40,397 bases of DNA from a virus (Duplodnaviria > Heunggongvirae > Uroviricota > Caudoviricetes), in the IMG/VR virus record IMGVR_UViG_2663763428_000010; one strand, written 5' to 3'. The position numbers and the translations under genes were made by a program. Positions 1 through 37,317 of this stretch are shown in pieces. Position 1 is the first letter of the stretch; every line of letters starts with the position of its first letter. The notes under the pieces are model-generated. The model worked only from the letters and a program-made list of their open reading frames with translations. It ran no database searches and was not told where the DNA came from.

Positions 1-1251
1 GTGCTTACCGATACAAAATTAAAAAACCTCAAGCCGCAGGACAAACTGTACAAGGTCTCCGATCGTGACGGGCTGTATGTAGCTGTGCTTACGTCAGGCA
101 CGGTCTCGTTTCGCTATGACTACCGTATCAACGGTCGCCGCGAAACACTGGTAATCGGGCAGTATGGGCGTGACGGTATCAGTCTAGCAGAAGCGCGAGA
201 AGAACTGATTGCTGCAAAGAAGCTGCTTAAAGCAGGCCAGTCGCCGGCTGCGGCTAAACGTGACGGTATCAAAAAGATTCGTGGTGCCGAGACGTTTGCG
301 GTACATACCGACAGTTATATGAAACACGTCATCCTGGCTGACAGTACCCGCGCAATGAAGCAGGCGGTGATCGACCGTGACATACTTCCGGTTCTTGGCA
401 ACAAAATGATGGCTGAAATTACCACATCGATGGTTCGTGATTTGTGTGACCGGATTGTCGAACGTGGTGGTCGGGCAACAGCAGTACAGGCCAGGGAGAT
501 CATCAGCAGCGTATACCGTCACGCCAATGACCGTGGTCATGGTTTGTTTAATCCTGCGGCTGACATTAAACCTTCGTCTATCGCCATATTTAAACCACGA
601 GAGCGAACACTGACACCAGAAGAAATTGGCCTGTTCTTCCGCACGCTGGATGCCATTGGTGCTATGGGCACTATGAAAATGGCTTTAAAACTGGTGCTTA
701 TCACTATGGTTCGTAAGGGCGAATTCACCAATGCAACGTGGGATGAAATAGATTTTAAAAAATGGACATGGACAATTCCTCCAGACCGCATGAAGGGAAG
801 CCGGGCGCACGTTATTTACCTGCCTAAACAGGCACAGGATATATTGGTCGGGTTGCAGATGTGCGCTGGTGGAAGTGAATATCTGGTTCCTGGTCGTTAC
901 AATTTCCGGAAGCCATTATCTAATGCCGCGCTGAACTCTCTGATCGACAGAACGGTGAAAATAATAAATGAAGATGGTGAGCATATTCAGGATTTTACCG
1001 TACACGATATGCGCCGTACAGCCAGTACGTTGTTGCATGAGGCTGGTTATCCTTCAGACTGGATTGAAAAGGCTCTGGCACATGAGCAGAAAGGTGTGCG
1101 CGCCGTATATAACAAAGCGGAATACGCCAGACAGCGCGCCTACATGTTGCAGCAGTGGGCCGATATGATTGATTCCTGGATTAACGGGGAGCATACGGAT
1201 CTGATTCCGTTCTCCCCGTCGAAGTTTGAGAAGTGGATGGCGGGGGAATAA
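1..1251 (+). CDS. int: Tyrosine site-specific integrase, P4-like; start at window edge (GTG at 1, possibly a few codons missing)
   Basis: 416 aa ORF; N-terminus LTDTKLKNLKP..DGLY resembles P4/CP4-57-type integrases as recalled; C-terminal HDMRRTAST..Y region typical of tyrosine recombinases. Confidence 0.85.
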   Translation: MLTDTKLKNLKPQDKLYKVSDRDGLYVAVLTSGTVSFRYDYRINGRRETLVIGQYGRDGISLAEAREELIAAKKLLKAGQSPAAAKRDGIKKIRGAETFAVHTDSYMKHVILADSTRAMKQAVIDRDILPVLGNKMMAEITTSMVRDLCDRIVERGGRATAVQAREIISSVYRHANDRGHGLFNPAADIKPSSIAIFKPRERTLTPEEIGLFFRTLDAIGAMGTMKMALKLVLITMVRKGEFTNATWDEIDFKKWTWTIPPDRMKGSRAHVIYLPKQAQDILVGLQMCAGGSEYLVPGRYNFRKPLSNAALNSLIDRTVKIINEDGEHIQDFTVHDMRRTASTLLHEAGYPSDWIEKALAHEQKGVRAVYNKAEYARQRAYMLQQWADMIDSWINGEHTDLIPFSPSKFEKWMAGE

Positions 1252-1254
1252 CGT

Positions 1255-1449
1255 TTAATAGTTCTGCTGATTTTCTTCCATCTCGGCTTCTGCTGCCAGT
1301 GATTCAATTTTATCTGTGAATATTGCTGACAGTGTTGCAAATTCAGCATCAGTGACAGCGGGAATTGGAACAAACCTGATCCCGCTGTGTGCAAGCATGT
1401 TTGCAGTTTCAAGGCATTTCCTTAAATCTGCTGGTGATGCCCTGTTCAT
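1255..1449 (-). CDS. Small hypothetical protein (64 aa), last gene of leftward early operon
   Basis: ATG at 1449-1447 overlaps the methyltransferase TGA stop (ATGA coupling); below the 60 aa start-to-stop threshold so only seen as part of a longer track ORF. Confidence 0.35.
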   Translation of the reverse strand: MNRASPADLRKCLETANMLAHSGIRFVPIPAVTDAEFATLSAIFTDKIESLAAEAEMEENQQNY

Positions 1450-2096
1450 GCTGCACGCTCCCGTCCCTGGTTGTCTGTTGGTGACAGCGGAGCATTGCTG
1501 AATGCATTTGTTAATCTGGCAATATCCAACGCGTATCCAGGGTGTAGTTGCACTGCCGGGTCTTCGCACTGATTACCCCAAACATCGAAGCCATGAGACG
1601 ACTGGCGGGCGAACAGTTCAATGCGAGAAACATCGCCTAACAATTGCACAAGTTTTTCACGAACGACATCTGGTTTTCTTGAATGCTCAAGCCGCGGTGC
1701 GGTAAATGACTGAACGATCCATGCATTAATGCGCGGAGGTAGTTTTCCCTTTACTGCAAACAGGCAATCTTCACTATTGGCGCGAGTCATGTGACCCATA
1801 CCCATAACCAGTTTATCTGGTTGTCGACTACCACATTTTATCCACGTGAAGCCCTTCATCGTCATCAGACGAAATCCCCAGGCTTCAACAACTTTTAGTG
1901 CTTCGAGTGGTTGTGTTGGCACCCACCACATGGCCAACAGACAGTTTTCAGCGGTCAAATCCCACACAGGAAGGCGGCAGATATCCAGCACACTCATAAC
2001 CGGATATTTAAAACCGGCACCGCGATTACCATCTGCGGCTTTGTCCCGGTATACCCAGGGTGGATCTGCATAGATTAGTGTGTATTTCTTAGTCAT
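1446..2096 (-). CDS. MT-A70 family DNA N6-adenine methyltransferase
   Basis: DPPW motif (LIYADPPWVY) near N-terminus; ATG at 2096 preferred over the upstream GTG used by the ORF track. Confidence 0.8.
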   Translation of the reverse strand: MTKKYTLIYADPPWVYRDKAADGNRGAGFKYPVMSVLDICRLPVWDLTAENCLLAMWWVPTQPLEALKVVEAWGFRLMTMKGFTWIKCGSRQPDKLVMGMGHMTRANSEDCLFAVKGKLPPRINAWIVQSFTAPRLEHSRKPDVVREKLVQLLGDVSRIELFARQSSHGFDVWGNQCEDPAVQLHPGYALDIARLTNAFSNAPLSPTDNQGRERAA

Positions 2097-2388
2097 AAAC
2101 CACCCCACAACATCCTATGCCGCTATAGTCGCCACGGCGAAGGCCGTTACCTTTTGTGATACATTGGTCCCTGCGAACCGCGATCCTTGCACGTTCAACA
2201 TCACCAGAAGCAACATCCATACACTGAAGCCAAAGGTGAGCGGCAATGCGGAATTGCCCTTTTTTCTCTCTTTCAATCGCGCGTTTTTCGATCTCTATCG
2301 CCGCAGGAGTAACGGCGACAATCTTTGAAGGGCTGCGCATTGAAACCTTGTTCATGTGATATTTTTCAAGTCGGCTTAACTTTCTCAC
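2089..2388 (-). CDS. Hypothetical protein (99 aa as tracked; true start uncertain)
   Basis: ORF whose stop overlaps the methyltransferase start by a few nt; no recognisable domain. Confidence 0.4.
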   Translation of the reverse strand: MRKLSRLEKYHMNKVSMRSPSKIVAVTPAAIEIEKRAIEREKKGQFRIAAHLWLQCMDVASGDVERARIAVRRDQCITKGNGLRRGDYSGIGCCGVVYD

Positions 2389-2497
2389 TTAATCCAACCC
2401 TCTCTGAAAATTAATGCCAGCAGATAAAGCCATGCTGAAACAGAGGCCAGGAATAAGTACCATCCTGACCATTTGCTCCAGTGCCTTAGCAGCACAC

Positions 2498-2746
2498 TCA
2501 TGCCGCGTTGCTCACGGGACGATATACACGTTGCTGAACAGGAGGTTTTTTACCCTGGAACTCTGCCGGGCTTGCTGCCTGACGTTCATCAAGCCAACGC
2601 TCAACTTCATCACGGTTCCATGCGCAGCGTTTATCGGTGATATACCAGCGTTTAGGAAATTCCCCTGCGCGCTCCATACGGTCGATAGTGCTCCATGACA
2701 GTGGCACCACCGCCAGGAGTTCCTTCTTACCTAATGCACCTTTCAT
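2498..2746 (-). CDS. AlpA-family DNA-binding protein (excisionase/regulator-like)
   Basis: 82 aa; short HTH protein with the W..E(V/I)..W(L) signature typical of AlpA/Xis-like phage regulators. Confidence 0.65.
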   Translation of the reverse strand: MKGALGKKELLAVVPLSWSTIDRMERAGEFPKRWYITDKRCAWNRDEVERWLDERQAASPAEFQGKKPPVQQRVYRPVSNAA

Positions 2747-2795
2747 AAATACCTCTCTTGGTTGCAGTGCGGCGCGCGTGGCGCCGCGGTGGTGG

Positions 2796-3677
2796 TTACA
2801 TAGATGTTTCGTTTAATTCTTCCCGACGAACGCTGTAAACGTCGGTGGCTTTTGCCAGCAGTTCGTCATCATCTGAAAGTTTTTGTGCAATGTATTTGTA
2901 AGCCTTATCCAGTTCGGAGACAGTGCTGTAATTCATCGCTGCGCTGGTAAAGGCCATCAGCATTTCTTCTGGCTCACGGCTATCCGCTTTACGCGTTTGC
3001 TCATCAGGCTTTTTCACTGATTTAGCGTTGATCAGACTGTTCATTCCCGCAGCCGTAGTCATTTGCGGAGTAATGTCTCGCTCAACGCGCGGTGCCGTTT
3101 CCTGTAATTCGTCAGGGGTGTAAACACCGAGAAGTACATCAGGAGCGTGCAGGCGAGCCCATCGTTTCGTGCAAAGATAGGCAAGTTGCTGGCGCGGATC
3201 CTGTTCCCACAATGGAGAGTTACGCACTCCTGCTTGCGCCATACTGATGGTAAGCTCACGTGGTTCTGCTTCTCCTTTAAGAACTGCTGACACAGTTACC
3301 GTCAGATTCGGTGATTTATCTGTTTTGCCGTTAACATTCGACCAGTCACCGCTCCAGCGATAATTCAGGCGTGTCGCCAGCAGGCTGGAAGAGGATACGA
3401 CCGCGTTTACCAACTGTGCTTCGTAGCCTAACGTTCCGTTTACCACATGCGTTTTCTGCGCCACGGCGAAAGGGTTCATTCCCCACTGTGCCGCCTGCAT
3501 GGTCACCGCCAGGCAATCGGCAGGTTTGCCTTCAAGATGTTTCGGTACAGTCGCTTTGCTTTGTGACATCAACTCCGCGAAACGCACCAGTTGATTCATG
3601 CCCTCGGGGCTGAAGATTGCCGCAGCAGTGCCTACAGTTGCGCCTGGTTGTGATGTGATTGCGATATCATTGCTCAT
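2796..3677 (-). CDS. bet: Bet/RecT-superfamily single-strand annealing protein
   Basis: 293 aa; C-terminal ERDITP segment and overall layout resemble lambda Bet as recalled; sits directly downstream of the exonuclease with overlapping stop/start. Confidence 0.7.
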   Translation of the reverse strand: MSNDIAITSQPGATVGTAAAIFSPEGMNQLVRFAELMSQSKATVPKHLEGKPADCLAVTMQAAQWGMNPFAVAQKTHVVNGTLGYEAQLVNAVVSSSSLLATRLNYRWSGDWSNVNGKTDKSPNLTVTVSAVLKGEAEPRELTISMAQAGVRNSPLWEQDPRQQLAYLCTKRWARLHAPDVLLGVYTPDELQETAPRVERDITPQMTTAAGMNSLINAKSVKKPDEQTRKADSREPEEMLMAFTSAAMNYSTVSELDKAYKYIAQKLSDDDELLAKATDVYSVRREELNETSM

Positions 3678-4495
3678 ACGTACATATCCTGTTTACGTGC
3701 CCAGTCAGGGCGTTTAATAATTTCCACTCCGCCCCATTCATCGTTGATGCGGCATTCGTGATAGGTATTCAGATCCCGGCGGAACAGAGCGTGCCCGGCA
3801 TCGACATCCGGCGCATCCAGCTCGAACACGCGTACCGGATACCGACCACAATCAATGCTTTCGCTCACGGCAAGAAAGAAAAAACCATGTGGCTGACCAG
3901 TAACCCTCATTGCGCCTTCGCGGTACATTGCGTCCTGCACGTGGTAGCGGAACTCCTCGATGTGGCGTGCAAAACGGTCCATATCTGCAACCTTTTTCAC
4001 GTCGACGATCACGTTGTGCTCTTTCAGCCATTTGTCTGGACGAATTCGGCACAACTCACCCGTATCTTCATCGTTCCAGTACATTGATGCTTCGCAGTAA
4101 CCAGGTGCTTCCAACATCCAGCGTGCCGCCGGGTGAGCCATTGCGCTATCACGCATCAGCTCCAGTTTTCGCCACTGCTCTGCATCAAGTACCGAAATCC
4201 CCATATCCGCTACATCACGAATAAATGCCTCTTCGTCAGCTTTACCTTGTTTTGTCCGACGATCGAATTTCGGTGAAACGATGAAGCGTTTGTCAAACTC
4301 TCCAGGTTCCAGAAGCAGACAGTGCAGAGCAGTACCCATGTCCAGTGCAGACTTCTTCTCTTCGTCTTCCGGAGCAGCCTTCACCCATTTCAGAAGGGCA
4401 GGGTTCTTAGCCACCATATCTAGCTGCGACTTACTCACGCCGTCACCGGCGTGGTAGTCCTCGTTGCTGATATCGAAATAAATTCCCGGATTCAT
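3674..4495 (-). CDS. PD-(D/E)xK recombination exonuclease (RecE/exonuclease VIII-like)
   Basis: 273 aa; RPD...IVDVKK fits a PD-(D/E)xK motif; N-terminal GIYFDISNEDYHAG segment typical of phage RecE-like exonucleases; paired with bet. Confidence 0.6.
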   Translation of the reverse strand: MNPGIYFDISNEDYHAGDGVSKSQLDMVAKNPALLKWVKAAPEDEEKKSALDMGTALHCLLLEPGEFDKRFIVSPKFDRRTKQGKADEEAFIRDVADMGISVLDAEQWRKLELMRDSAMAHPAARWMLEAPGYCEASMYWNDEDTGELCRIRPDKWLKEHNVIVDVKKVADMDRFARHIEEFRYHVQDAMYREGAMRVTGQPHGFFFLAVSESIDCGRYPVRVFELDAPDVDAGHALFRRDLNTYHECRINDEWGGVEIIKRPDWARKQDMYV

Positions 4496-4791
4496 GCCGC
4501 GTCCCTCTGCCCATCAATCTGATCAGCCAGATCCCAGCGGGCGATAATTGCCATTGCCTCGCGCCGGTAGGCATCCATTAGTTCTTCGAACTCAGGGCTG
4601 TCTTTAGCGGCCTCCAGTACTTCCTGGCGAACGCCTTTAACTGTTACAACGTCGAAAGTTGATGCCAGTTGATGAAGCCGGATACTCTCAATCAGTTCAA
4701 CTTGTCGGTCATATAGCTGTTCTGACAGGCGGTAGTCCTTGTCGAATGCCAGCATGATTTTTTGAAGATTTTTCTGCTGATTAACGTTCAT
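4492..4791 (-). CDS. Hypothetical early protein (99 aa from ATG MNVNQQ)
   Basis: GGAGGG Shine-Dalgarno upstream of the ATG at 4791; stop overlaps exonuclease start. Confidence 0.5.
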   Translation of the reverse strand: MNVNQQKNLQKIMLAFDKDYRLSEQLYDRQVELIESIRLHQLASTFDVVTVKGVRQEVLEAAKDSPEFEELMDAYRREAMAIIARWDLADQIDGQRDAA

Positions 4792-4796
4792 TATCA

Positions 4797-4946
4797 GCCC
4801 TCCCATATCTCGTTATCGTTGGCCACATCGCGAGCTTCTTTGCTGACGAAAGCCCACTTAATGCCTTCCTGTAAGGTGCGGAACTTCCAGCTCATGAATC
4901 CGCATGCAGTAACGCAGTACCAACCGTTGATGATTTTCCACTGCAT
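4797..4946 (-). CDS. Small hypothetical protein (49 aa), first gene of leftward early operon
   Basis: ATG at 4946 preceded by GAGGTAA Shine-Dalgarno that lies inside an operator half-site; TGA stop just before the next gene RBS. Confidence 0.35.
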
Positions 4947-4965
4947 AACTTGTTACCTCGGTCTG

Positions 4966-5042
4966 TTACCGTTGAGGTAATAATTATTCGTATCTGGTTT
5001 GATGTCAATAGATATGAGTTAAAAAAATTACCCATTAGGTAA
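4966..5042 (-). promoter_or_regulatory. Leftward early promoter region with two operator palindromes (4966-4980 TTACCGTTGAGGTAA; 5028-5042 TTACCCATTAGGTAA)
   Basis: Two perfect TTACC-N5-GGTAA palindromes between the repressor terminator and the first leftward gene. Confidence 0.6.
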
Positions 5043-5052
5043 TCGAATAGGC

Positions 5053-5078
5053 AATAAAAAAGCCGCCAGAAGGCGGCT
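5053..5078 (-). terminator. Rho-independent terminator downstream of repressor gene
   Basis: AGCCGCC-AGAA-GGCGGCT hairpin preceded on plus strand by an A-tract (U-tract on minus strand). Confidence 0.65.
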
Positions 5079-5099
5079 TACTTACTGAAAAATATGATT

Positions 5100-5684
5100 T
5101 TATTGTTTGTTTTTTTCGTTCTGGTTGATGACAAATTCAATGTAACTTTCGATCTTTGCTTTCTCGGTTTCGGGTAACAATGCGTAGCGCGAGCGATCAT
5201 AGTTGATGGTCGCAGGGTCGTGCGGGTGAATCAGTAATTCATAGCCGTGACGCCCGAATGCGGATGCAACATTCTCCAGGGTGGAAATGGAAACGCTGAC
5301 CTCATTGTTTAACAGGCGGCTGATTGTCACCTGGGCGACGCCGGATGCGCGGTGAAGTTTTCCCTGTGTTGAAAGGTCGCGGCTTTCGCTCATCCAGCGT
5401 TCCAGGTTGTGAGCCGCAAGCTGACCTATATCGCTCGGGCCGACAGGCTGAAAACCCTCCTGAGAAAGCGAACGATCAATATCAAGCCAGTTACGGGGTT
5501 TATTGGCGGCAGCTTCAATTTTTCGTGCAACCTGGTCGCCGATAACCTTCTTGCCAAGAGCCCAGCGGTTTACCAGATTTGCCTGAGTTCCAAGTTTTTC
5601 TGCCATCCGCGTCTGAACACCATTGAATTCACGGTCGATCAAGTCGTTGAGATTTTGCCTGCGGACGTCCTGGATACTTTTCAT
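5100..5684 (-). CDS. Prophage repressor, tandem HTH_XRE domains, no S24 peptidase domain
   Basis: 194 aa; two Cro/CI-type HTH-like segments; divergent from a Cro-like gene across an operator-rich intergenic region. Confidence 0.7.
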   Translation of the reverse strand: MKSIQDVRRQNLNDLIDREFNGVQTRMAEKLGTQANLVNRWALGKKVIGDQVARKIEAAANKPRNWLDIDRSLSQEGFQPVGPSDIGQLAAHNLERWMSESRDLSTQGKLHRASGVAQVTISRLLNNEVSVSISTLENVASAFGRHGYELLIHPHDPATINYDRSRYALLPETEKAKIESYIEFVINQNEKNKQ

Positions 5685-5739
5685 TTTCTGGAAAATCGCC
5701 TCATATATGAATCAGTAGATGATTCAATTTAAAGCAATA

Positions 5740-5802
5740 TTACCCAACAGGTAAATGCACCCCACAGGTAACTATCCTTGATTTTTGTTACCTTATGGGT
5801 GA
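5740..5802. promoter_or_regulatory. Immunity-region operator cluster with three sites (5740-5754 perfect; 5757-5771 degenerate left half; 5788-5802 near perfect) and divergent promoters
   Basis: TTACCCAACAGGTAA, GCACCCCACAGGTAA, TTACCTTATGGGTGA between divergent repressor and cro-like genes; TTGATT -35-like hexamer at 5778-5783. Confidence 0.65.
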
Positions 5803-5838
5803 ATATTTATTATCTGAAATAAATATCAGGCAATAGCT

Positions 5839-6069
5839 ATGAGCGATAACGGACATTTCGATTTCAAAAAGCACTGGCTTGCACTTACTCCGGATGAGCG
5901 TGAAGCCTTCGCACAGGAAGCCGGAACGACGAGTCACTATATCCAGACTCACTTAACAGGTAAGCGCAAAATGCCAGGTAAGGTATTGATGAATGGGCTT
6001 TTTAAAGCCTGTAAAACAAGACAATGGCTGCGCTCAAAAGCAGAACTGGCATACTTCTTCTACTCATGA
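5839..6069 (+). CDS. Cro-like small DNA-binding protein
   Basis: 76 aa ORF divergent from the repressor, immediately downstream of the operator cluster. Confidence 0.55.
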   Translation: MSDNGHFDFKKHWLALTPDEREAFAQEAGTTSHYIQTHLTGKRKMPGKVLMNGLFKACKTRQWLRSKAELAYFFYS

Positions 6070-6090
6070 TATCCAGCCACAACCCTCTGT

Positions 6091-6116
6091 AGACCGCCAT
6101 CCGGCGGTCTTTTCAT
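6091..6116 (+). terminator. Rho-independent terminator after cro-like gene
   Basis: AGACCGCC-ATCC-GGCGGTCT hairpin followed by TTTTC. Confidence 0.6.
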
Positions 6117-6124
6117 ATCTATTC

Positions 6125-6139
6125 GTACCTCAAAGGTAA
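6125..6139. promoter_or_regulatory. Operator palindrome (GTACCTCAAAGGTAA) upstream of the replication operon
   Basis: Family member of TTACC-N5-GGTAA with one mismatch, directly after the cro terminator. Confidence 0.5.
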
Positions 6140-6219
6140 TAAAAAACCAAATATGGTTGATCTTTTTTTTGTGTCAGCACAAAATAACCGTAATCCCAAT
6201 ACTAATAACAGGGCTTACC

Positions 6220-6420
6220 ATGGAAATCATTACACGTATTGATGCCGCAAAGCGCGGACTTAAACGCTACTACACCGGAAAACCATGTAAGCACGGACAT
6301 GACAGTGAACGCTGGGTTTACAACGGACACTGTGTTGAGTGCACCATGGAATCAAACCGTCGCATCAGGGCAGAGATTAAGCAGATCATGATTAATTCCT
6401 CCCCACAACACTCAAGCTGA
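6220..6420 (+). CDS. Small Cys/His-rich hypothetical protein at the cII-equivalent position
   Basis: 66 aa from ATG at 6220; track ORF begins upstream at a TTG, rejected; PCKHGH...GHCVEC motif. Confidence 0.45.
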   Translation: MEIITRIDAAKRGLKRYYTGKPCKHGHDSERWVYNGHCVECTMESNRRIRAEIKQIMINSSPQHSS

Positions 6421-6435
6421 TAGCGGAGATTAATC

Positions 6436-7251
6436 ATGAGCAGACATGCAACAGATTGGGCCTGGGAGACAGATCCAGGTAGCTCATCATTAAAGCTCAT
6501 ACTGCTCTCGATGGCTGACAGAGCCGATGAATATAACCTCTGCTACCCCAGCATAGAACGCCTCGTTAAAGACACTTGCCTGAATAAAAAAACCGTGCAG
6601 GCCGGGCTTATATCGCTCATGAAAATGGGGCTTATTTCAGATACCGGAGAGAGAAAGGGAGCGACAAAAAGAGTGCGGGTTTTCTCTCTTAATATAACCA
6701 AAAACGGGAACATTAAAGGCAACCGGGAGGGGGGCAATGAACCAGAAAACGGTAATGTTACCGAAAACGGGAATATACCCAAAAACGGGATGTTGAATGA
6801 TCCCAAAAACGGGATGTTGAATGATCCCAAAAACGGGATCCAGAACCAGTCATATAACCAGTCATTTAACCAAGAGAGGGAGAGCAGGACAAAAAACGGG
6901 GATTCTGTGCATCATGACCCCGGCGCAAACAACGCCGTGATGAATAACTTTGTTCCTCCTGGTGGGCCAGGGCAATTAGGCAAATTTGTCATGCATGAAC
7001 AATGGCAGCCATCAGATGACTTTCTTCGGAAAAGCTCATTGCAGGGGATCTACCTGGACAGTCTGCCAACGGCACAGGAACTTGCAGAGTTCAGAATTTA
7101 CTGGATGGCTGAGGGTAAGGCATACCATCAGGCACAGTGGGAGCAGAAGCTGGCAAGGCGGCTGCAGATTAGCAGACAGAAGCAATCAACATTATCTGAT
7201 AACAACGTTCCGCACTGGAACAGCCCTGAAGCATGGGAGGATTTCTTGTGA
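6436..7251 (+). CDS. Replication initiator, lambda O-like, N-terminal HTH
   Basis: 271 aa; N-terminal HTH-like domain; internal iteron-like DNA repeats; stop overlaps the P-like gene start. Confidence 0.7.
   Translation: MSRHATDWAWETDPGSSSLKLILLSMADRADEYNLCYPSIERLVKDTCLNKKTVQAGLISLMKMGLISDTGERKGATKRVRVFSLNITKNGNIKGNREGGNEPENGNVTENGNIPKNGMLNDPKNGMLNDPKNGIQNQSYNQSFNQERESRTKNGDSVHHDPGANNAVMNNFVPPGGPGQLGKFVMHEQWQPSDDFLRKSSLQGIYLDSLPTAQELAEFRIYWMAEGKAYHQAQWEQKLARRLQISRQKQSTLSDNNVPHWNSPEAWEDFL
6697..6841. repeat. Iteron-like direct repeats (core CCAAAAACGGGA) including an exact 24-bp tandem duplication at 6778-6825; candidate replication origin
   Basis: Repeated motif at 6697, 6741, 6759, 6778, 6802, 6826 and 6888; followed by AT-rich repeated CCAGTCAT(A/T)TAACCA. 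Confidence 0.55.
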
Positions 7252-8556: not shown

Positions 8557-9069
8557 ATGGAAAGTAATATCAAAGGGTTAGTTTCTGCCGGGCATGAGAT
8601 GGCTTCGGAACTGAAAGCTGAATGTGGTGCCGTTGATATGCGCAGTGTGGCAAAGCTGCTCAGCGATTTGGCAACGCAACTGGAAGTGCAACTGGTGCGT
8701 GCTAATGCGCTGGCCGAAGACCACCAGAGCGCGATTGAGTCAATTAAGCAGGCTGATGCTGCTGTTAAGTTGGCACACGAGAAGTTTTCAGCGCTGGCAG
8801 CGGAGAATGCAAAGCTGAAGAAGTTCTGCAAAGACGCTGCATTCGATGCCGATTACGAAGCAGAGCTAGGTATGGAGAGAGGTGGCTTCAGTGATGCACT
8901 TAACGAAATCAAAACCCCGGCCACCGACGCATTCCTTGCTGAAGTCCGGGCGCAGGGCGTGGAGATGGCTATGGAGCATATGCAGTCGAGCGGTTCGTTA
9001 ACATTTGGAGATTGCTACATATCACTTAACGAGTTCGCCGCAGAGCTTCGCAAAGGAGGCAACCAGTGA
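8557..9069 (+). CDS. Hypothetical protein, coiled-coil rich
   Basis: 170 aa ORF with GAGGGTAAAT RBS. Confidence 0.55.
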   Translation: MESNIKGLVSAGHEMASELKAECGAVDMRSVAKLLSDLATQLEVQLVRANALAEDHQSAIESIKQADAAVKLAHEKFSALAAENAKLKKFCKDAAFDADYEAELGMERGGFSDALNEIKTPATDAFLAEVRAQGVEMAMEHMQSSGSLTFGDCYISLNEFAAELRKGGNQ

Positions 9070-9824
9070 GCAAGATTGACTATCAGGCACTGCGTGAGTT
9101 AGCAAAACAGGCAACACAGGGCGAATGGGTCGCATTTATTTCGCCGGGTACTGGTACGTATGCGGTGCATACGCCAGGTGATAAACGATGCGAAGATGTT
9201 ATCAAATGGCCTGGGTTTGATGGACAGAAAAAAGCTGCTGCTAATGCTCGTTATATCGCAGCTTTCAACCCTGAAGTAGTGCAGGCACTGCTGGATGAAC
9301 GGGAAAGAAACCAGCAATACATCAAACGCCGCGACCAGGAGAACGAGGATATTGCGCTAACGGTAGGGAAGCTGTTAATCGAAAACGGTCAGCTTGTTGC
9401 CGATACGCTACGCCACTTAGCTGATAACGAAATCGACTCTGATTATTTTGCTATCACCTCAACTAATGAGAACGGTACTGAAATTGATCATGAGATGTCT
9501 ATTACCGATTACGCACTGCAAGCTGCCGGAACTGTAGACGAATTGGTTGCGGCGCTGGAAGCCGCAAAATCAAAACTCAACGAGCAGCGTGAATATTACG
9601 AGGGAGTAATCGCGGATGGAAGTAAGCGCATAGCAGAGTTAGAAAGTGGTTCTCAGGCACAAAAGTTAGTTGAAGCAATCATTGTTGCGATAGAAAACGA
9701 ACAGGAACGTCTTTTTGATGAAGATTACCTAATGGATTCGAAAGAATGCATTGACGTAATTCGTGAAGAAGTAAAGCGATGGAATGATTCCCGCGCCGCT
9801 GGCATTCGCATCAAAGGAGAGTGA
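9066..9824 (+). CDS. Ead/Ea22-like protein
   Basis: 252 aa; N-terminus MSKIDYQALRELAKQATQGEW characteristic of Ea22-like proteins; GTG start overlapping previous stop. Confidence 0.6.
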   Translation: MSKIDYQALRELAKQATQGEWVAFISPGTGTYAVHTPGDKRCEDVIKWPGFDGQKKAAANARYIAAFNPEVVQALLDERERNQQYIKRRDQENEDIALTVGKLLIENGQLVADTLRHLADNEIDSDYFAITSTNENGTEIDHEMSITDYALQAAGTVDELVAALEAAKSKLNEQREYYEGVIADGSKRIAELESGSQAQKLVEAIIVAIENEQERLFDEDYLMDSKECIDVIREEVKRWNDSRAAGIRIKGE

Positions 9825-10072: not shown

Positions 10073-10243
10073 ATGACCACTTTAACCGACAAAGAACTGA
10101 TTAAAGAAATCAAAGAGCGTATCAGCAGCCTGGACGTTCGAGACAATATTGAACGCCGGGCTTATGAAATTGCACTGGCATCGCTGGAAGCAGACCCGGT
10201 TGTGTTCTGGTTTGAAAAATATCAAGAAGGGGCTACGGCATGA
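10073..10243 (+). CDS. Small hypothetical protein (56 aa)
   Basis: ATG with GAGG RBS; stop overlaps next start (ATGA); N-terminus MTTLTDKEL resembles next gene N-terminus MTTFTNSKL. Confidence 0.4.
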   Translation: MTTLTDKELIKEIKERISSLDVRDNIERRAYEIALASLEADPVVFWFEKYQEGATA

Positions 10244-14540: not shown

Positions 14541-14617
14541 TGGCGTGGCATGCAGGATTCGAACCTGCGACCAACCGCTTAGAAGGCGGTTGCTCTGTCC
14601 AACTGAGCTAATGCCAC
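14541..14617 (-). tRNA. tRNA-Arg, anticodon UCU (reads AGA)
   Basis: Reverse complement folds as full cloverleaf: acceptor GTGGCAT/ATGCCAC, D-arm GCTC...GAGC, anticodon stem ACCGC/GCGGT with loop CTTCTAA, T-arm GCAGG-TTCGAAT-CCTGC, discriminator G and encoded CCA. Confidence 0.85.
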
Positions 14618-31556: not shown

Positions 31557-31715
31557 ACGAATGCCACCGCCGCCCGGGCGGGAATCCGCAGAACGCCCAC
31601 CGCAGCGGGAGCCGTCAGCGGCAGTATCGCTGTCGTGCTGACAACGGCCGGCAAAGGCCTGAGTTGAAGCTACCAGAGACAACAAAACGAACAGTGCAGC
31701 AAATGCTTTTTTCAT
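31554..31715 (-). CDS. Small signal-peptide protein candidate
   Basis: MKKAFAALFVLLSLVASTQAFA signal-like N-terminus followed by a short GC-rich Cys-containing tail; weak RBS. Confidence 0.25.
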   Translation of the reverse strand: MKKAFAALFVLLSLVASTQAFAGRCQHDSDTAADGSRCGGRSADSRPGGGGIR

Positions 31716-31798
31716 TGTGAAAAATTTCCATCTATAAGCCACCTCAATGTGGCGTCAATGAGTGTAGCACTGACTTTTGTTTCGTCCATAAAAAACTA

Positions 31799-32311
31799 CT
31801 ATGCAGGCTTTTTGGATTTGTACGAATAATCCCACGGATAAACATTTCTACTAAGTGGAGCTGTATTCGTTCGTTCATGAAATAATTTTGTGAAATTCAA
31901 TACGGAATCCATCCAAACTTTTGCGTTAGCTTTGGTGTGTGCGGGCGGGTCCCAATAAGCTAGTAAGGCTGCATCTCTTATTTCATTGACTGCATATATG
32001 AGATATGCGTTACTGGTTGGTTTTGGCCTGTAATTTCCTTGTTCATCAATCAATCCATATGACCACTCATCCCAACACTGTTCAGTACATGAGTATGAAT
32101 ATGATGCATATTCACCAATATTGACATGAACCTTTCTGAGATGGAAGCCTAATACTTCCTCTGGTCTTTCAAAAAGAGTATCTTTTCCCAGATCAGGATG
32201 ATGACCATGACGCCAGTGTTGTTTAAAAGCATCTTTTAGCGAAATCAGAAAGTCATCAGTTTTAAACTCACCAGTAGGTATAACCTTCCCGCTATACTCA
32301 CTCAAAAACAT
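31799..32311 (-). CDS. Toxin-like protein, tentatively YafO-family
   Basis: 170 aa; segments HGHHPDLGKDTLF, LRKVHVNI and TSNAYLIY...LLAYWDPPAH resemble E. coli YafO as recalled from memory; ATG embedded in the end of the upstream gene with GGAAGAGGAA RBS. Confidence 0.45.
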   Translation of the reverse strand: MFLSEYSGKVIPTGEFKTDDFLISLKDAFKQHWRHGHHPDLGKDTLFERPEEVLGFHLRKVHVNIGEYASYSYSCTEQCWDEWSYGLIDEQGNYRPKPTSNAYLIYAVNEIRDAALLAYWDPPAHTKANAKVWMDSVLNFTKLFHERTNTAPLSRNVYPWDYSYKSKKPA

Positions 32312-32624
32312 CGAATTCCTCTTCCTTCATATGCGTTTCTAATGAGTTAAGCTGGCGGAAAGATATCTCTTTTGATTCTGCAGATGAGAGTTTTTTTATC
32401 CGCTTTATATTCTTTGTGATAGGAATAGACATTGTATGCACATCAGCGGATGCTCTTGGCTTTGTGCTGATAAAAATATGGCGCAATGCCGCATTTTCAC
32501 TATTGAACGAGCCAATAGCTGATTTACGTGCTACAACCTTACCAGTAAAAATACGACTCTTGCTACGCTTTGCATGAGTTCCGCTTCTTACCGGACCTCT
32601 CATCACGAATCCAAGTTTTGTCAT
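32298..32624 (-). CDS. Basic small protein, candidate partner/antitoxin of the downstream toxin-like gene
   Basis: 108 aa; GGAG RBS; overlaps the downstream gene by 14 nt; acidic C-terminus EEEFDVFE. Confidence 0.45.
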   Translation of the reverse strand: MTKLGFVMRGPVRSGTHAKRSKSRIFTGKVVARKSAIGSFNSENAALRHIFISTKPRASADVHTMSIPITKNIKRIKKLSSAESKEISFRQLNSLETHMKEEEFDVFE

Positions 32625-32666
32625 CTTTAATCTCCGGTAAGTTACAGGTATAAAATAAAAACAGGT

Positions 32667-32681
32667 TTACCTTTAAGGTAA
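32667..32681 (-). promoter_or_regulatory. Operator palindrome (TTACCTTTAAGGTAA) upstream of the two-gene toxin-like operon
   Basis: Perfect TTACC-N5-GGTAA about 45 bp upstream of the start at 32624, in an AT-rich promoter-like region. Confidence 0.5.
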
Positions 32682-32753
32682 TAGTACGCTATTCACCCCC
32701 GGTCTGCAATCTGTACAGAATTATTTAAAGGCACATCCCTGTGCCGCCGCCCG

Positions 32754-33464
32754 TCAGAAGAACCCTGCCTTGTCGTTGATGTACTCCGCGTGCGTCTGGA
32801 TATCACGCAGGCATTTACTCACACCGACGATGTAGCAGAACATGGTGGTCAGCTCCGCCGCCGCGCCCGATACGTCGTGCCCGTCGTCCTGCAACTGATT
32901 CAGCAGATTCATCAGCAATGAGTTCTCCGTCAGGCCGAGAACACCAGACGGCGAATGAATCAGACTGCGGTAGCCGGGCTTCAGTGGGGCACTGTAGGTT
33001 TTGTTCTCTATCTTCATTGCCTGCATCACTGCTGACGCCGTGGCGTTGGCTACCTGGTCGGCAACCATCTTTATGCGTTCTTCCTGCGGGAACGAGTTTT
33101 TAATGTAGCTTCCTGTTCGACGGATCTGAGGAAGTACCTCACCTGTAACCCATTTACGAAAGCGGTAGGGGATAGTGCCTAGTGTCACTGCGTCGCGGCA
33201 GCGGAGGATCAGTGTGTAGAGGCCTGACTCGGAGATGATGTTGATCTCTTTTACTCGGCTGTCAAAAATTGCACGATGTTCATGCCCTATGTTGAACATA
33301 GACCTTTCATCATCATCCAGTTTTTCAAGTGCTTGGGTGACGTTTTGGATACGCAGCGCACTACAAACGTCTTGGGCTACAAACCATGGTTGGCCATCGA
33401 TAATGATGGAACGGATAGGGTTAACAGATTCAAATTTGAAGATGGCAGTTTGAGCATTAGCCAT
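32754..33464 (-). CDS. Bro-N domain antirepressor-like protein
   Basis: N-terminal Bro-N-like segment; ATG at 33464 with GGAG RBS; C-terminal domain homologous to the small protein at 34613-34870. Confidence 0.65.
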   Translation of the reverse strand: MANAQTAIFKFESVNPIRSIIIDGQPWFVAQDVCSALRIQNVTQALEKLDDDERSMFNIGHEHRAIFDSRVKEINIISESGLYTLILRCRDAVTLGTIPYRFRKWVTGEVLPQIRRTGSYIKNSFPQEERIKMVADQVANATASAVMQAMKIENKTYSAPLKPGYRSLIHSPSGVLGLTENSLLMNLLNQLQDDGHDVSGAAAELTTMFCYIVGVSKCLRDIQTHAEYINDKAGFF

Positions 33465-33861: not shown

Positions 33862-34590
33862 ATGGAAGTTTTCTGGATAGTTGTTGGTGTGGTTGCGGTG
33901 ATTATTTACGTTATCAACCAGAACAAGACTAAGATCTCTGATCGTACGGTCGTTAATCATAACAAAACGATAAAGACCGAAGATGGGGAGATAACGATTA
34001 ATCGTACACAGGTGATAGAACACACCTCTACTCAGTTTCAAAAAACTGGAGGTAATGCGCCTGATATTTCCGCACCTCCTGCTTATGATAGTGCGGTAAT
34101 CCAGACATATTATAAACAGCAGGAGTTAGCAAAAGAGAGGCAACTGATTCAGCCAAAGCCGTTTACAGCTGAGCTTCCACCTGGAGTGTCAACGCGTCCG
34201 GCATATCATGGAAGATTCCCTGGTGATGACATATCGTCTCAGTCATCTAAAAAAGCACCTCAGGCAGTATCAGAGCCAGCAAGAATAACTTCTGTATCGC
34301 CGCCAAAAGAAGAATCAGCTAACAGAGTTTCAAGTGGTAGCAAGCAGTGCTTGCGATGCAGAATAAACCTTCCATATGAAAAATTCAGGAAATCGTCAAA
34401 AAATCCAGATGGATTGACTAAGTGGTGTGCAAGGTGTCTCGATGGCCCAAAGAATACACGCCATATGAAGTGGTGCCCAATTTGTAATGTCCGCAGAAAA
34501 CGAACCAGCTTTTACCCTAATAATCAAAATGCGGACGGCTTAATGGCATGGTGCAAAACGTGCTGGGATGAGCACAAAGCGAAACGATAG
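33862..34590 (+). CDS. Membrane-anchored protein with two tandem C4 zinc-ribbon repeats
   Basis: 242 aa; N-terminal TM helix; two repeats of CxxC-x21/22-CxxC sharing DGL...WC...C. Confidence 0.6.
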   Translation: MEVFWIVVGVVAVIIYVINQNKTKISDRTVVNHNKTIKTEDGEITINRTQVIEHTSTQFQKTGGNAPDISAPPAYDSAVIQTYYKQQELAKERQLIQPKPFTAELPPGVSTRPAYHGRFPGDDISSQSSKKAPQAVSEPARITSVSPPKEESANRVSSGSKQCLRCRINLPYEKFRKSSKNPDGLTKWCARCLDGPKNTRHMKWCPICNVRRKRTSFYPNNQNADGLMAWCKTCWDEHKAKR

Positions 34591-34614
34591 GCCGCTCTTG
34601 CGGCCTTTAAATTT
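34589..34614. terminator. Hairpin terminator between convergent genes
   Basis: AGGCCGC-TCTT-GCGGCCT followed by TTAAATTT. Confidence 0.45.
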
Positions 34615-34870
34615 ACCGGGTTTGTTTTCGTAATTGTTCGGCACAATAGTCGAGATGTGTTTGCAGATCCCGCATAGACATCTGTGAGCTGGTGACGTAG
34701 TTAATCAGTGCAGTCAGTTCGGCAAGTGGGCCATCGACATTAAATCCATCCTTATCGAGATCCCGGAGTAATTTCATCAAGTGCGATCCCTCCACCAGTG
34801 ACCTGACGCCTCCCGGCGTGTGAATCCTTTCGGTAAATCCGTCTTCCAGTGGATAGTGATACTGCTGCAT
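34613..34870 (-). CDS. Small protein paralogous to the C-terminal domain of the Bro-N antirepressor
   Basis: 85 aa from ATG at 34870 with GGAGAAG RBS; alignable by eye to Bro-N protein residues about 150-235 (shared LRDIQTH / MRDLQTH block). Confidence 0.55.
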   Translation of the reverse strand: MQQYHYPLEDGFTERIHTPGGVRSLVEGSHLMKLLRDLDKDGFNVDGPLAELTALINYVTSSQMSMRDLQTHLDYCAEQLRKQTR

Positions 34871-34946
34871 CTTATCTTCTCCATGCAATAACTGTATATT
34901 TATACAGTATCAAATAATTTGTTTGCTATCCAGCACGTTTTGCAAA

Positions 34947-34961: not shown

Positions 34962-35065
34962 TATCTATTCGTATTTACAGCCTTTCTATCCATATATGGT
35001 TTTTCAGGTAATAGAATAACCAGATATGCGGCGCAACGGGTGCTGCGGCTATCTGGAGATTTAAC

Positions 35066-37228
35066 ATGACGGTCTCAACCGAAGTTAACCACAACGAATA
35101 CACAGGTAATGGTGTTACGACCACATTCCCTTACACCTTTAGGGTTTTCAATAAATCTGATCTGGTGGTGCAGGTGATTGACCTTGAAGAAAATATCGCT
35201 GTGCTGGCTCCTGATACTGATTACACAGTTACCGGGGCGGGAAGCTATTCAGGTGGGAGCGTTGTGTTGATGTCACCTCTGGCCAACGGATGGCAAATCT
35301 CTATCTCACGTGACTTGCCTGTTACCCAGGAGACTGATCTGCGTAACCAGGGGAAATTTTTCGCAGAGGTACATGAGGATGCGTTCGACAAGCTGACCAT
35401 GCTTATCCAGCAGTGCTTCAGCTTTCTCCGCCTGGCGCTGCGTAAGCCGTCGTTCATCGCGAACTATTACGACGCACTCAACAACCGCATTCGTAATCTG
35501 CGTGACCCGTCACAGGCACAGGATGCAGCAACAAAATCTTATGTGGACTCGGGAGATAATGACAGCACTCATCATGCAGATGGTCTTTTCCAGCGAACTT
35601 TGCGAGTTCCGGAAAGTCAGGTAGGAATCATGGCATCTGTACGAGCCAGAGCAAATATGCTGATTGGATTCAATGACCAGGGGGATCCTGTTCCGATTGC
35701 AGGGCAAACTGAAACGGCAGATTTGGCAATCAAGCTAGCATCAAAAGACGGTGCTGGCTTAGTTGCTACGGAAACAGGAAGAACGGTAGAGGCTTCTATT
35801 CGTGCTGCGTCTGGATCATCACAGGCCCTTTTCCCAAATTTCGTCAATAAATTAACAGCTTATCGGCATGGGGTTTCTGGCTATCAGAACTTATTTCGAC
35901 TCTATGGGTTTGGTTCTTCTGTTGGGGTTGGTGCTACGCTTCCTGATCCAGCAACACAGGCACCAGTTGCTAAATTTTTTGAGTATATGAACGATACGCT
36001 AAATAAGCAGCGTATTTATCCCATTAACTTCACAAACAAATCTGTTAATGGTTCAACGATAAATAATTTTATTGTTAACCAATGGCCTGAAGTTGTTGCT
36101 GAAGGAATATATCCTGATATTGCTTTGTTTATATATGGAATGAATGATTTTCCTACCGCACAATATAATGCCGGGCAAACATTCAATGAAAACGGATTTA
36201 AACAGCGCCTTCGAAATGCTATTAATTTAGTCAGGGAGGCCGGCGGGGATGTTGTGCTAACAACCACACCTCATCCGAATATTTCTGAATATAGCTGGAG
36301 CATGCCGGCTGGAATTTCTCAAATATGGCCTTCATATTCTCCGGCCCCAGTCTCTGATAATAACATTATACCATCTGCCGCAAACTCAAATGTCACGTTT
36401 GAGTGGAATGGGGTAAATATTCAAGCAGGTGTCCGCTTCCTTCGAGGAAACGATGCGATCAGGAAAATCGCTGTAGAAATGGGTTGCGTGCTTATCGATG
36501 TGGAAAAATACTGGTTTGATGCTGTTGCTAAATATGGTGAAACGGCATTATTTGACCGGACCCCTGAAATACAGACTGTTCACCCTAACCTTTTAGGTCA
36601 TCAGCAATCATACTGGCTGGCTTTCGAGGATTTCTTTAGAAATCTGGACAGGAACGGATGGATTCCTGCAGTTGCAAATCATTATGATGTTTTTGATGTC
36701 GGTGGAAAAGCGACTTTCCCTAATCCACGTACTGCAGATATTGATCTGCAGAGCAACGGGATCAGAGATAATGCATACATTCATCGAGATCAATTTGCTC
36801 GTCCTCTACTGACAATCGGTCATACTGGCGTGAGAACCAAGACCTGGTATACCTCTCAAGACCCTGCAGCAAATGCAGGTTATAGCATTAGCTGGATAGA
36901 TTACGGAACTCGTTTTCAAGGTCTGGTAAATACAGGTGAAGTCAAATCCATCGCAATACCAAACAGAACGACGCAGAGAATCCTTATCGATGCTTGGTCT
37001 TCTGCACAAAACACCTGGGCTGAATGTTTAGAGCTACTCGTTGCTAACCGTGAGGGTACCATTTCAATATCGATCACAGGTGAACTCGATACCACTCCAC
37101 CGGCGGGGGGCGGAACGTCAGGCGGACGGCGCTTATTCTCTATTTCAGCGGGGAGTGGTGTATTAAACATAACTGTTAATGTTGATCTCTCTACGCTAAA
37201 AGTTAGAGTCGGCGGTTTCAGCGCTTAA
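35066..37228 (+). CDS. Tailspike / tail fiber with T7 gp17-like N-terminal adaptor and SGNH esterase-like domain
   Basis: 720 aa; N-terminus NHNEYTGNGVTTTFPYTF typical of T7-type fiber N-domains; SGNH-like blocks GFGSS, GMND and VHPN. Confidence 0.75.
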   Translation: MTVSTEVNHNEYTGNGVTTTFPYTFRVFNKSDLVVQVIDLEENIAVLAPDTDYTVTGAGSYSGGSVVLMSPLANGWQISISRDLPVTQETDLRNQGKFFAEVHEDAFDKLTMLIQQCFSFLRLALRKPSFIANYYDALNNRIRNLRDPSQAQDAATKSYVDSGDNDSTHHADGLFQRTLRVPESQVGIMASVRARANMLIGFNDQGDPVPIAGQTETADLAIKLASKDGAGLVATETGRTVEASIRAASGSSQALFPNFVNKLTAYRHGVSGYQNLFRLYGFGSSVGVGATLPDPATQAPVAKFFEYMNDTLNKQRIYPINFTNKSVNGSTINNFIVNQWPEVVAEGIYPDIALFIYGMNDFPTAQYNAGQTFNENGFKQRLRNAINLVREAGGDVVLTTTPHPNISEYSWSMPAGISQIWPSYSPAPVSDNNIIPSAANSNVTFEWNGVNIQAGVRFLRGNDAIRKIAVEMGCVLIDVEKYWFDAVAKYGETALFDRTPEIQTVHPNLLGHQQSYWLAFEDFFRNLDRNGWIPAVANHYDVFDVGGKATFPNPRTADIDLQSNGIRDNAYIHRDQFARPLLTIGHTGVRTKTWYTSQDPAANAGYSISWIDYGTRFQGLVNTGEVKSIAIPNRTTQRILIDAWSSAQNTWAECLELLVANREGTISISITGELDTTPPAGGGTSGGRRLFSISAGSGVLNITVNVDLSTLKVRVGGFSA

Positions 37229-37317
37229 CTATTACCATTTATCCATAAACGGTTTATTGTGTATGATGAACTTACCCAACTAAGGAGGTTCATCATGCAT
37301 AGTAAACGGTGGTCATC

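Follow-up and report, generated by a model that had tools for sequence, protein, structure and literature searches.

Which host surface polysaccharide does the tailspike of this temperate phage recognise, and what would it do to it? The window analysed here is the whole 40,397-nucleotide stretch of IMG/VR record IMGVR_UViG_2663763428_000010, and it holds a ~39-kb epsilon15/phiV10-like (Uetakevirus-type) prophage integrated beside guaA in Escherichia coli. The gene under study (Table 1) was called a tailspike in the initial annotation, and this identity is supported: it lies in the tailspike slot of the prophage, the position of epsilon15 gp20 and of the phiV10 tail fibre, and its product begins with a virion anchor. 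It is flanked by homologues of gp17 and gp19 on one side and by the holin-endolysin-Rz cassette on the other, in the same order as in epsilon15 and phiV10, and a Klebsiella pneumoniae prophage shares this synteny, with a gene of 90% identity at the equivalent place. The protein is identical (100%) to WP_064764887.1 from E. coli WCHEC005784, which RefSeq names 'SGNH/GDSL hydrolase family protein'. Residues 1-249 match phrog_1640 ('tail protein') and residues 198-720 match PHROG 18703 ('tail fiber protein', 1026 bits); NCBIfam has no family for it. No second fibre or spike gene was found among the annotations of the prophage, and the tailspike is its sole receptor-binding protein. A scan for promoters and terminators around the gene gave nothing above chance. 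A LexA box is located just upstream. In epsilon15 and phiV10, serotype-conversion genes directly follow the spike, whereas here only 80 nt separate the tailspike stop codon from the holin gene, which rules out a hidden serotype-conversion gene 3' of the tailspike.

Table 1. Positions in the window of the tailspike gene, its domains and its sequence motifs.
Feature	Position	Strand	Remarks
Shine-Dalgarno GGAG	35055..35058	+	7 nt ahead of the tailspike ATG; read from the sequence
Tailspike / receptor-binding protein gene	35066..37228	+	720 aa plus stop; from the ORF list, ATG start
Virion-anchor domain, aa 1-160	35066..35545	+	epsilon15 gp20 type, remotely T7 gp17-like
Stalk / neck, aa 161-234	35546..35767	+	epsilon15 gp20 homology stops at aa 234
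SGNH esterase domain, aa ~255-530	35828..36655	+	
Block I, GFGSS, aa 281-285	35906..35920	+	Ser285 probable nucleophile; directly after model strand 277-282
Block II, NKSVNGS, aa 324-330	36035..36055	+	Gly329, oxyanion-hole glycine by alignment to TesA and LAE5
Block III, GMND, aa 358-361	36137..36148	+	Asn360, oxyanion-hole asparagine by alignment to TesA and LAE5
Family-specific stretch between blocks III and V	36263..36499	+	near-invariant T400, P402, H403, R457, N462, R466
Block V, QTVHPN, aa 503-508	36572..36589	+	aligned to DRIHPN of LAE5 (PDB 5jd3); His506 predicted catalytic
C-terminal tailspike-type beta-sandwich, aa ~570-720	36773..37225	+	

Over aa 1-234 BLASTP gives 68% identity with the part of epsilon15 gp20 that binds the virion; at the DNA level the N-terminal region shares 78% identity with phiV10, and the N-terminus is also matched by that of the Carin-1 tail fibre, taken from a tail-complex structure. 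The N-terminus had been described as a conserved adaptor of the T7 gp17 type, which holds, though only at a remote level. BLASTP finds no similarity between T7 gp17 and the tailspike, and the Pfam model Phage_T7_tail (PF03906) scores 15.5 bits, below its cut-off of 25.2, over residues 135-161 only. On the other side, a profile alignment with the N-termini of T7, K30 and KL01 gp17 (hhalign) has a probability of 93% and an E-value of 3e-7 over 142 columns, against 0.4% for a reversed-template control, and places tailspike residues 11-162 on T7 gp17 residues 10-156. Judged by these profiles, the relation to T7 gp17 is one of remote homology, not of family membership by Pfam's rule, and the close relative is epsilon15 gp20. 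Residues 135-233 match the stalks of the Acinetobacter-type depolymerases 9m4c and 9m4d, and the stalk ends in a junction motif, LASKDGAGLV (aa 225-234). In the monomer model pLDDT is below 50 at residues 87-240; the stalk region is modelled poorly, as would be expected of a trimeric stalk, the spike being presumably a trimer.

Beyond residue 234 the tailspike has no BLASTP similarity to epsilon15 gp20, a protein of 1070 residues with a right-handed beta-helix body (PF13229); by Pfam this domain is absent from the tailspike. What follows the anchor is a module, aa ~225-720, that recurs behind P22-type, T7-type and other anchors, so that the proposal of a swapped receptor-binding module is well founded. 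In a P22-like prophage, at a place following mnt/arc, a P22 head-binding domain stands before the module (95% identity), and in an alignment the P22-type and other fusions pass into the module at this LxSKxGAxLV junction. In Klebsiella phage KL01 the module stands behind a T7-type N-terminus, and in coliphage K30 (gp17.3) and in KpV289 and KpV766 it is a separate second receptor-binding protein. Klebsiella-annotated relatives of the tailspike reach 74-91% identity, and the very close relatives in Klebsiella prophages indicate that the module moves between genera and phage types. Base composition had been cited in support of a swap, with the centre of the gene described as AT-rich relative to its ends. 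The AT-rich centre is real (GC 0.367 in 300-nt windows at 35850-36299; a 450-nt window at the same region falls within the bottom 1.2% for GC across the prophage), but GC at third codon positions, 0.556 in the anchor, falls at about residue 160 and stays at 0.29-0.40 to the end of the gene. Thus, the foreign-looking part is everything past the anchor, not just the centre.

The core of the module is an SGNH domain. The blocks GFGSS, GMND and VHPN (the last at aa 505-508, nt 36578-36589) noticed at the outset are not chance resemblances: Pfam Lipase_GDSL_2 (PF13472) scores 41.8 bits over residues 299-513, above its 32.9-bit cut-off, and the motif residues are invariant across 35 homologues. Structure prediction agrees with the domain search, giving a three-layer alpha/beta/alpha SGNH fold with the Ser, Gly, Asn and His positions conserved, and the closest fold matches of the domain are carbohydrate O-acetyl esterases. 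At the sequence level the relationships are distant. A single-sequence search of the PDB returned matches to the N-terminus only, a profile search added one partial match, LAE5, and neither search gave a direct link to the solved structures of esterase spikes. A single-sequence search of 1.84 billion representatives did not reach mainstream SGNH enzymes, and the subfamily that it delimits comprises 193 clusters at 50% identity.

Taking anchor, module and hosts together, we consider it likely that the gene encodes a tailspike with an esterase module for an acetylated host polysaccharide, and that this polysaccharide is most probably the Klebsiella-like group 1 capsule. We infer the esterase activity, acetyl as the leaving group and the capsule as the substrate. 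The first ~234 residues are the conserved portion that docks the spike onto the tail, and where epsilon15 gp20 has its beta-helix glycanase body the protein carries, from residues ~225-235 on, a portable module made up of a short linker, the SGNH esterase domain and the C-terminal beta-sandwich. In the proposed mechanism, the presumed trimer would bind an O-acetylated host surface polysaccharide, most likely the group 1 capsule, either as such or linked to lipid A, of the prophage carriers in the O8/O9 family of E. coli. An acetyl ester would then be hydrolysed with Ser285 as the nucleophile and His506 as the base, without the canonical Asp, in an oxyanion hole predicted to consist of the Gly329 backbone and the Asn360 side chain. 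Deacetylation would let the virion pass the polysaccharide layer and commit itself to infecting the cell while leaving the glycan backbone uncut, as has been shown for gp63.1 of phage G7C and gp41 of Acinetobacter phage Aristophanes.

These precedents resemble the tailspike to different degrees. Phage G7C carries a second receptor-binding protein, gp66, whereas the prophage studied here relies on the tailspike alone. Among phage proteins related by fold, only G7C gp63.1 (PDB 4QNL), an SGNH deacetylase of O-antigen, has been structurally characterised; it is just 12% identical to the tailspike, is not matched in sequence searches, and has the anchor of an N4-like phage as opposed to an epsilon15-like one. 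As PMC13123978 cites, it takes an O-acetyl group off LPS. For Aristophanes gp41, NMR showed deacetylation of the K26 capsule (PMC8471582); it is similar by description, as a podovirus spike that is a capsule polysaccharide deacetylase; its phage infects another host genus (Acinetobacter) and belongs to another family (Autographiviridae). According to PMC13123978, SGNH ranks with the most frequent enzymatic domains of Klebsiella prophage receptor-binding proteins, and two such proteins, 164_08-KL2 and 174_38-KL55, hydrolyse p-nitrophenyl acetate. Like the tailspike, the Klebsiella prophage SGNH proteins come from temperate phages of Enterobacteriaceae with group 1-type capsules and have the SGNH domain in a C-terminal module. 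The likeness of 164_08 and 174_38 is again by description: their N-termini are unlike that of the tailspike, and the motif of at least 164_08 is of the GQSN type, in contrast to GFGSS. For epsilon15 gp20 itself, the title of a 2026 preprint refers to a protruding esterase domain.

K30 gp17.3, the second receptor-binding proteins of KpV289 and KpV766 (Przondovirus) and the tail fibre of KL01 are true homologues of the whole module at aa ~240-720: they align with 99-100% of it at 52-59% identity and give the same Pfam match. K30, KpV289 and KpV766 encode it as a stand-alone protein of ~511-517 residues beside a gp17 fibre, whereas here it is fused to the virion anchor; this group of phages is described as having two receptor-binding proteins. 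These homologues appear to be uncharacterised, and our literature search returned no paper naming KpV289 together with SGNH. They also supply a point against our proposal: to our knowledge the K30 capsule is not acetylated, and coliphage K30, whose module is 54% identical, is named for that capsule.

The surface polysaccharide loci of the hosts bear directly on the choice of substrate. Among seven complete E. coli genomes with the tailspike gene, which probably represent only two or three clones, six have Klebsiella-like group 1 capsule loci with wzi-wza-wzb-wzc. For the seventh carrier, IH5, whose chromosome is rearranged relative to the others, a capsule locus was not found in three annotation windows and one search. 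The capsule loci of the carriers are of two unrelated types, those of WCHEC005784 and BE311. Each encodes its own hexapeptide-repeat acyl/acetyltransferase, and the two enzymes are unrelated to each other; since many capsule loci carry such an enzyme, its presence in two of two loci is weak evidence. The module is 99.8% identical between hosts of the two unrelated loci, so that spike and K type do not pair one to one. The K locus of the WCHEC005784 type occurs in seven genomes, two of them with the tailspike, and that of the BE311 type in 22 genomes, four of them with the tailspike; the prophage is absent from the remaining 5/7 and 18/22, respectively. A strict link between spike and capsule type is therefore ruled out, one spike being found with two unrelated K loci and most locus-bearing genomes being free of it. 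PMC13123978 reports for the SGNH receptor-binding proteins of Klebsiella prophages a looser specificity for the K locus than that of beta-helix depolymerases, and one spike in two K loci fits this pattern.

This loose association is one of several observations that could direct the same esterase spike to the LPS O-antigen, or to some other acetylated surface glycan, and not to the group 1 capsule. G7C gp63.1, the sole structurally characterised phage fold relative, acts on O-antigen (cited in PMC13123978), and PMC12115436 likewise considers a receptor other than the capsule for certain SGNH prophage spikes. The epsilon15 and P22 lineages, which share the anchor or the module, classically use O-antigen. 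The hosts themselves speak against such a substrate. The O9-family O-antigen genes adjoining the capsule loci are interrupted by insertion sequences, and the O9-family export gene wzm is a fragment, according to RefSeq, in both host types inspected, which makes a normal O-chain doubtful; in BE311 wbdC is a fragment too. In addition, the closest relatives of the tailspike are found in Klebsiella prophages and in capsule-specific Klebsiella phages. On balance we regard a substrate other than the capsule as rather unlikely.

The lack of a strict capsule type can also be read within a broader idea, to which we give little weight at present: the module may represent a small self-contained SGNH branch, nearly confined to phage receptor-binding proteins, that recognises the acetyl decoration rather than a particular backbone. 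If so, one sole spike would open hosts of different capsule types.

Whether the domain is an enzyme at all depends on its active site. Sequence alignments with solved enzymes fix two of its positions: Gly329 aligns to Gly44, and Asn360 of GMND to Asn73 of GGND, in E. coli TesA (hhalign), and LAE5 places Gly329 likewise and puts GMND on GIND. Block I, which departs from GDS(L) in having GSS(V), lies outside both the Pfam alignment and those with LAE5 and TesA. Its probable register, GSSVGVG against GDSLSAG of TesA, comes from the motif, and the assignment of Ser285 as nucleophile rests on this register and on conservation, because the alignments skip the block. In block V, His506 aligns to the catalytic His of LAE5. 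Three residues before it, position 503 holds Gln in 115 of 225 relatives, Glu in 95, Asn in 7 and Asp in none. As aligned, Gln503 sits in place of the canonical Asp, and the family is without a canonical catalytic Asp, in contrast to the D-x-x-H type of G7C gp63.1. Q/E-x-x-H may be a variant of DxxH, with a Ser-His dyad at work or with Glu used in part of the family.

The Asp missing throughout the family and the altered block I would also suit a catalytically dead, lectin-like SGNH domain in a spike that merely binds polysaccharide. We find this very unlikely. Across the 225 homologues, whose identity otherwise goes down to ~30%, Asn360 and His506 are kept in 225/225, Ser285 and Gly329 in 224/225 and Ser284 in 217/225, so that each of the four predicted active-site residues persists in at least 224/225 sequences; selection on a working site would give such a pattern. 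Moreover, there are known SGNH enzymes that function with a Ser-His dyad or whose acid is non-canonical. Another activity (taking off a different acyl substituent, hydrolysing lipids or lysophospholipids, or transferring an acyl group in place of hydrolysis) might be read from the small size and distinctness of the subfamily and from its own near-invariant residues (H403, R457, N462, R466, D478, E480), but is highly improbable given that carbohydrate O-acetyl esterases give the best matches in fold, that the phage receptor-binding-protein precedents are all deacetylases and that outside the cell a virion protein has no acyl donor to draw on for transfer.

SGNH receptor-binding proteins are well described, neither the concept nor the fold is new, and the gene has been annotated before; it opens no new question. 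If the preferred reading is right and the spike is an active deacetylase, it would determine which hosts can be infected by a temperate phage circulating among E. coli lineages with Klebsiella-type capsules. It would also add a further case to the mounting evidence that, in encapsulated Enterobacteriaceae, temperate phages frequently modify the capsule and do not degrade it. An active spike would also bear on the prediction of phage host range, on serotype-based typing and on vaccines. The carriers of the prophage include human clinical isolates as well as isolates from piglet faeces and cattle.

The open reading frame at 35066-37228 (plus strand, 720 amino acid residues) is the sole fiber or spike gene of the element and occupies the same slot as epsilon15 gp20 and the phiV10 tail fiber. 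Its product is 100% identical to WP_064764887.1 of E. coli WCHEC005784, which RefSeq names "SGNH/GDSL hydrolase family protein", and in PHROGs its residues 198-720 match phrog_18703 ("tail fiber protein", 1026 bits). The gene already carries an SGNH hydrolase annotation, and its product falls within a class of receptor-binding proteins described before in phages; nothing particular to it departs from known esterase receptor-binding proteins. Esterase spikes as a class are established: G7C gp63.1 is cited as deacetylating the O-antigen (PMC13123978), Aristophanes gp41 deacetylates the K26 capsule (PMC8471582), and a fiber of Pectobacterium phage Possum is described as having a deacetylating action (PMC9569702). 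In a 2026 study, SGNH ranked among the commonest enzymatic domains in receptor-binding proteins encoded by Klebsiella prophages, and two of these proteins were shown to hydrolyze pNPA (PMC13123978); a 2025 survey reported the same prevalence (PMC12115436).

Several independent tests identify residues ~255-530 as an SGNH domain. The Pfam Lipase_GDSL_2 match exceeds the curated cut-off and the AlphaFold2 model is confident across this region, in agreement with the initial annotation, whose observation is confirmed overall and whose interpretation is supported, predicted esterase activity and substrate aside. Pfam comparison revealed no beta-helix in the spike, whereas epsilon15 gp20 has one. Catalytic residues were assigned through alignment to the solved enzymes TesA and LAE5: blocks II and III pair with Gly44 and Asn73 in E. 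coli TesA, whose numbering is consistent, and block V pairs with the LAE5 catalytic His. Among 225 relatives taken from two database searches, Asn360 and His506 are kept in all, Ser285 and Gly329 in 224 each, and Ser284 in 217. We take Ser285 as the probable nucleophile because it is more conserved than Ser284 and because GSSVGVG appears to fit the GDSLSAG register of TesA. The triad-Asp position of SGNH enzymes is Gln503 in the spike; relatives have Gln (115), Glu (95) or Asn (7) there, and never Asp. Residues T400, H403, R457, N462, R466, D478 and E480 are near-invariant and peculiar to this family, and roughly 80 residues in the domain fall outside the superposition with canonical SGNH enzymes. 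Searching 1.84 billion representative proteins gave no more than 193 clusters with E values of 0.001 or less, about 16 of which share the whole module (linker, SGNH domain and C-terminal beta-sandwich). The module is a small, distinct SGNH branch living in receptor-binding-protein-sized proteins.

The N-terminus had been described as a T7 gp17-type adaptor. Results on this point are mixed: the Pfam T7 tail-fiber model scores under threshold on the spike and BLASTP gives no match to T7 gp17. A profile of epsilon15-type N-termini, however, can be aligned over 142 columns with one built from the gp17 N-termini of T7, K30 and KL01 (93% probability, E 3e-7), versus 0.4% for a reversed template. At the level of remote homology, the statement therefore holds.

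There is good support for the proposal that the receptor-binding module has been swapped. A P22-like E. coli prophage has the module (residues ~225-720; 95% identical) immediately after mnt/arc, fused to a P22 head-binding domain; Klebsiella phage KL01 has it fused to a T7-type N-terminus, and elsewhere it follows tail-collar and TSP1/gp66-type N-termini. Free-standing forms (coliphage K30 gp17.3 and the homologous protein of KpV289/KpV766) each adjoin a gp17 fiber. In the alignment, the junction of all fusions is a conserved LxSKxGAxLV motif (residues 225-234). Of 5426 complete E. coli genomes, just 7 carry the module, whereas 43 have the 5'-terminal ~490 nt of the gene, joined to other bodies. 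Base composition is in line with a swap. The center of the gene had also been considered AT-rich, and the 450-nt window 35850-36299 is indeed among the lowest 1.2% of the prophage in GC, but third-position GC is 0.556 in residues 1-160 and 0.29-0.40 in each later segment, so the low-GC part comprises all that follows the anchor rather than the center alone. Compared with the BE311/F41/K99S allele, 38 of 42 differences lie within nt 22-196 of the gene (35087-35261, 175 nt), the remainder being 99.8% identical; this is a mosaic patch within the anchor domain. Between the window and BE311 prophages, the downstream lysis genes are only about 90-95% identical and the upstream cargo block is wholly replaced.

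What is particular to this spike is the fusion of the SGNH module straight to an epsilon15-type anchor as the sole receptor-binding protein, in a family that, judging from the alignment, lacks the catalytic Asp. Klebsiella relatives are 74-91% identical, and one comes from an epsilon15-like prophage of K. pneumoniae whose synteny is the same. Also particular is the absence of serotype-conversion genes between spike and holin. The spike stop codon is only 80 nt from the first holin gene, whereas epsilon15 has gp21/gp22 and phiV10 the O-acetyltransferase gene oac right after the spike; such genes are likewise absent from the Klebsiella prophage carrying the homologue.

We also considered the surface-polysaccharide loci of the carriers. 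WCHEC005784 has a Klebsiella-like group 1 capsule locus (wzi-wza-wzb-wzc, wcaJ, glycosyltransferases, a hexapeptide-repeat acyltransferase, wzx, rfbBADC) followed by an O9-family O-antigen locus whose wzm is cut by ISKpn26 (46141-47482 of its stretch L007). BE311 has a different, wbaP-initiated group 1 locus with its own hexapeptide acetyltransferase, and its adjoining O9-family locus is heavily degraded, with IS1, ISKpn26 and IS66 among wzm and wbdC fragments (1146-7239 of its stretch L008). The spike is present in 2 of 7 genomes with the WCHEC005784-type capsule locus and in 4 of 22 with the BE311-type, so six of seven carriers fall within two rare capsule types, together about 0.5% of genomes; the seventh, IH5, was not placed to a capsule type. 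This points, weakly, to capsulated O8/O9-family hosts and makes an acetylated capsule a plausible substrate of the predicted esterase. The indication is weak because the carriers probably represent no more than two or three clones, neither the two loci nor their acetyltransferases are related to each other, capsule loci commonly contain acetyltransferases, and lineages of this kind frequently switch capsules. Within ST167, 30 group 1 types were reported (PMC12405470), and a similarly loose link between SGNH spike and K type is reported for Klebsiella prophages (PMC13123978). The WCHEC005784 capsule locus also encodes, between wzx and gnd, a 425-residue right-handed beta-helix protein (Pfam Beta_helix; L007 38007-39284).

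The window is a piece of E. coli chromosome, and the spike belongs to a complete prophage of ~39 kb in it, located between guaA and yfgI. The prophage runs from the integrase at position 1 to Rz at about 39130; the host genes yfgI and yfgH come next. In gene order and in several proteins it matches Salmonella phage epsilon15 and coliphage phiV10 (genus Uetakevirus); genes in common include portal, capsid, T7-gp14-like core protein, large internal proteins, tailspike, two holins, GH19 endolysin and Rz. RefSeq lists two early genes as incomplete pseudogenes, and the prophage may therefore be partly decayed.

Features of the prophage outside the spike gene (window positions)
Feature	Position	Strand	Remark
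ead/Ea22-like gene, early region	9066-9648		incomplete pseudogene per RefSeq
DUF551 gene, early region	10073-10207		incomplete pseudogene per RefSeq
tRNA-Arg gene (anticodon TCT)	14541-14617	minus	
Low-GC cargo block	31666-32865		GC about 0.38-0.40
YafO-family toxin gene, in cargo block	31799-32311		RefSeq annotation
Small partner gene upstream of toxin gene	32298-32624		RefSeq annotation
242-aa ORF	33862-34590		just upstream of spike region
91-aa gene	34613-34888	minus	epsilon15 gp19-like
LexA (SOS) box	34890-34909		one mismatch to pattern searched
Spike-to-holin gap	37229-37308		

The cargo block is missing from epsilon15, and the otherwise near-identical BE311 prophage has a DUF4760 gene in its place. 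The 242-aa ORF has a cysteine-rich C-terminus (CxxC pairs), matches only Stc1 in Pfam, below threshold, and is about 100% conserved in the BE311 prophage. A near-perfect LexA box, AACTGTATATTTATACAGTA, the sole match in the window (0.01 expected by chance), lies in the gap between the 91-aa gene and the spike start. The C-terminus of the gp19-like product is similar to that of the BRO-N protein, and box and gene together may form an antirepressor-type switch under SOS control that governs prophage induction.
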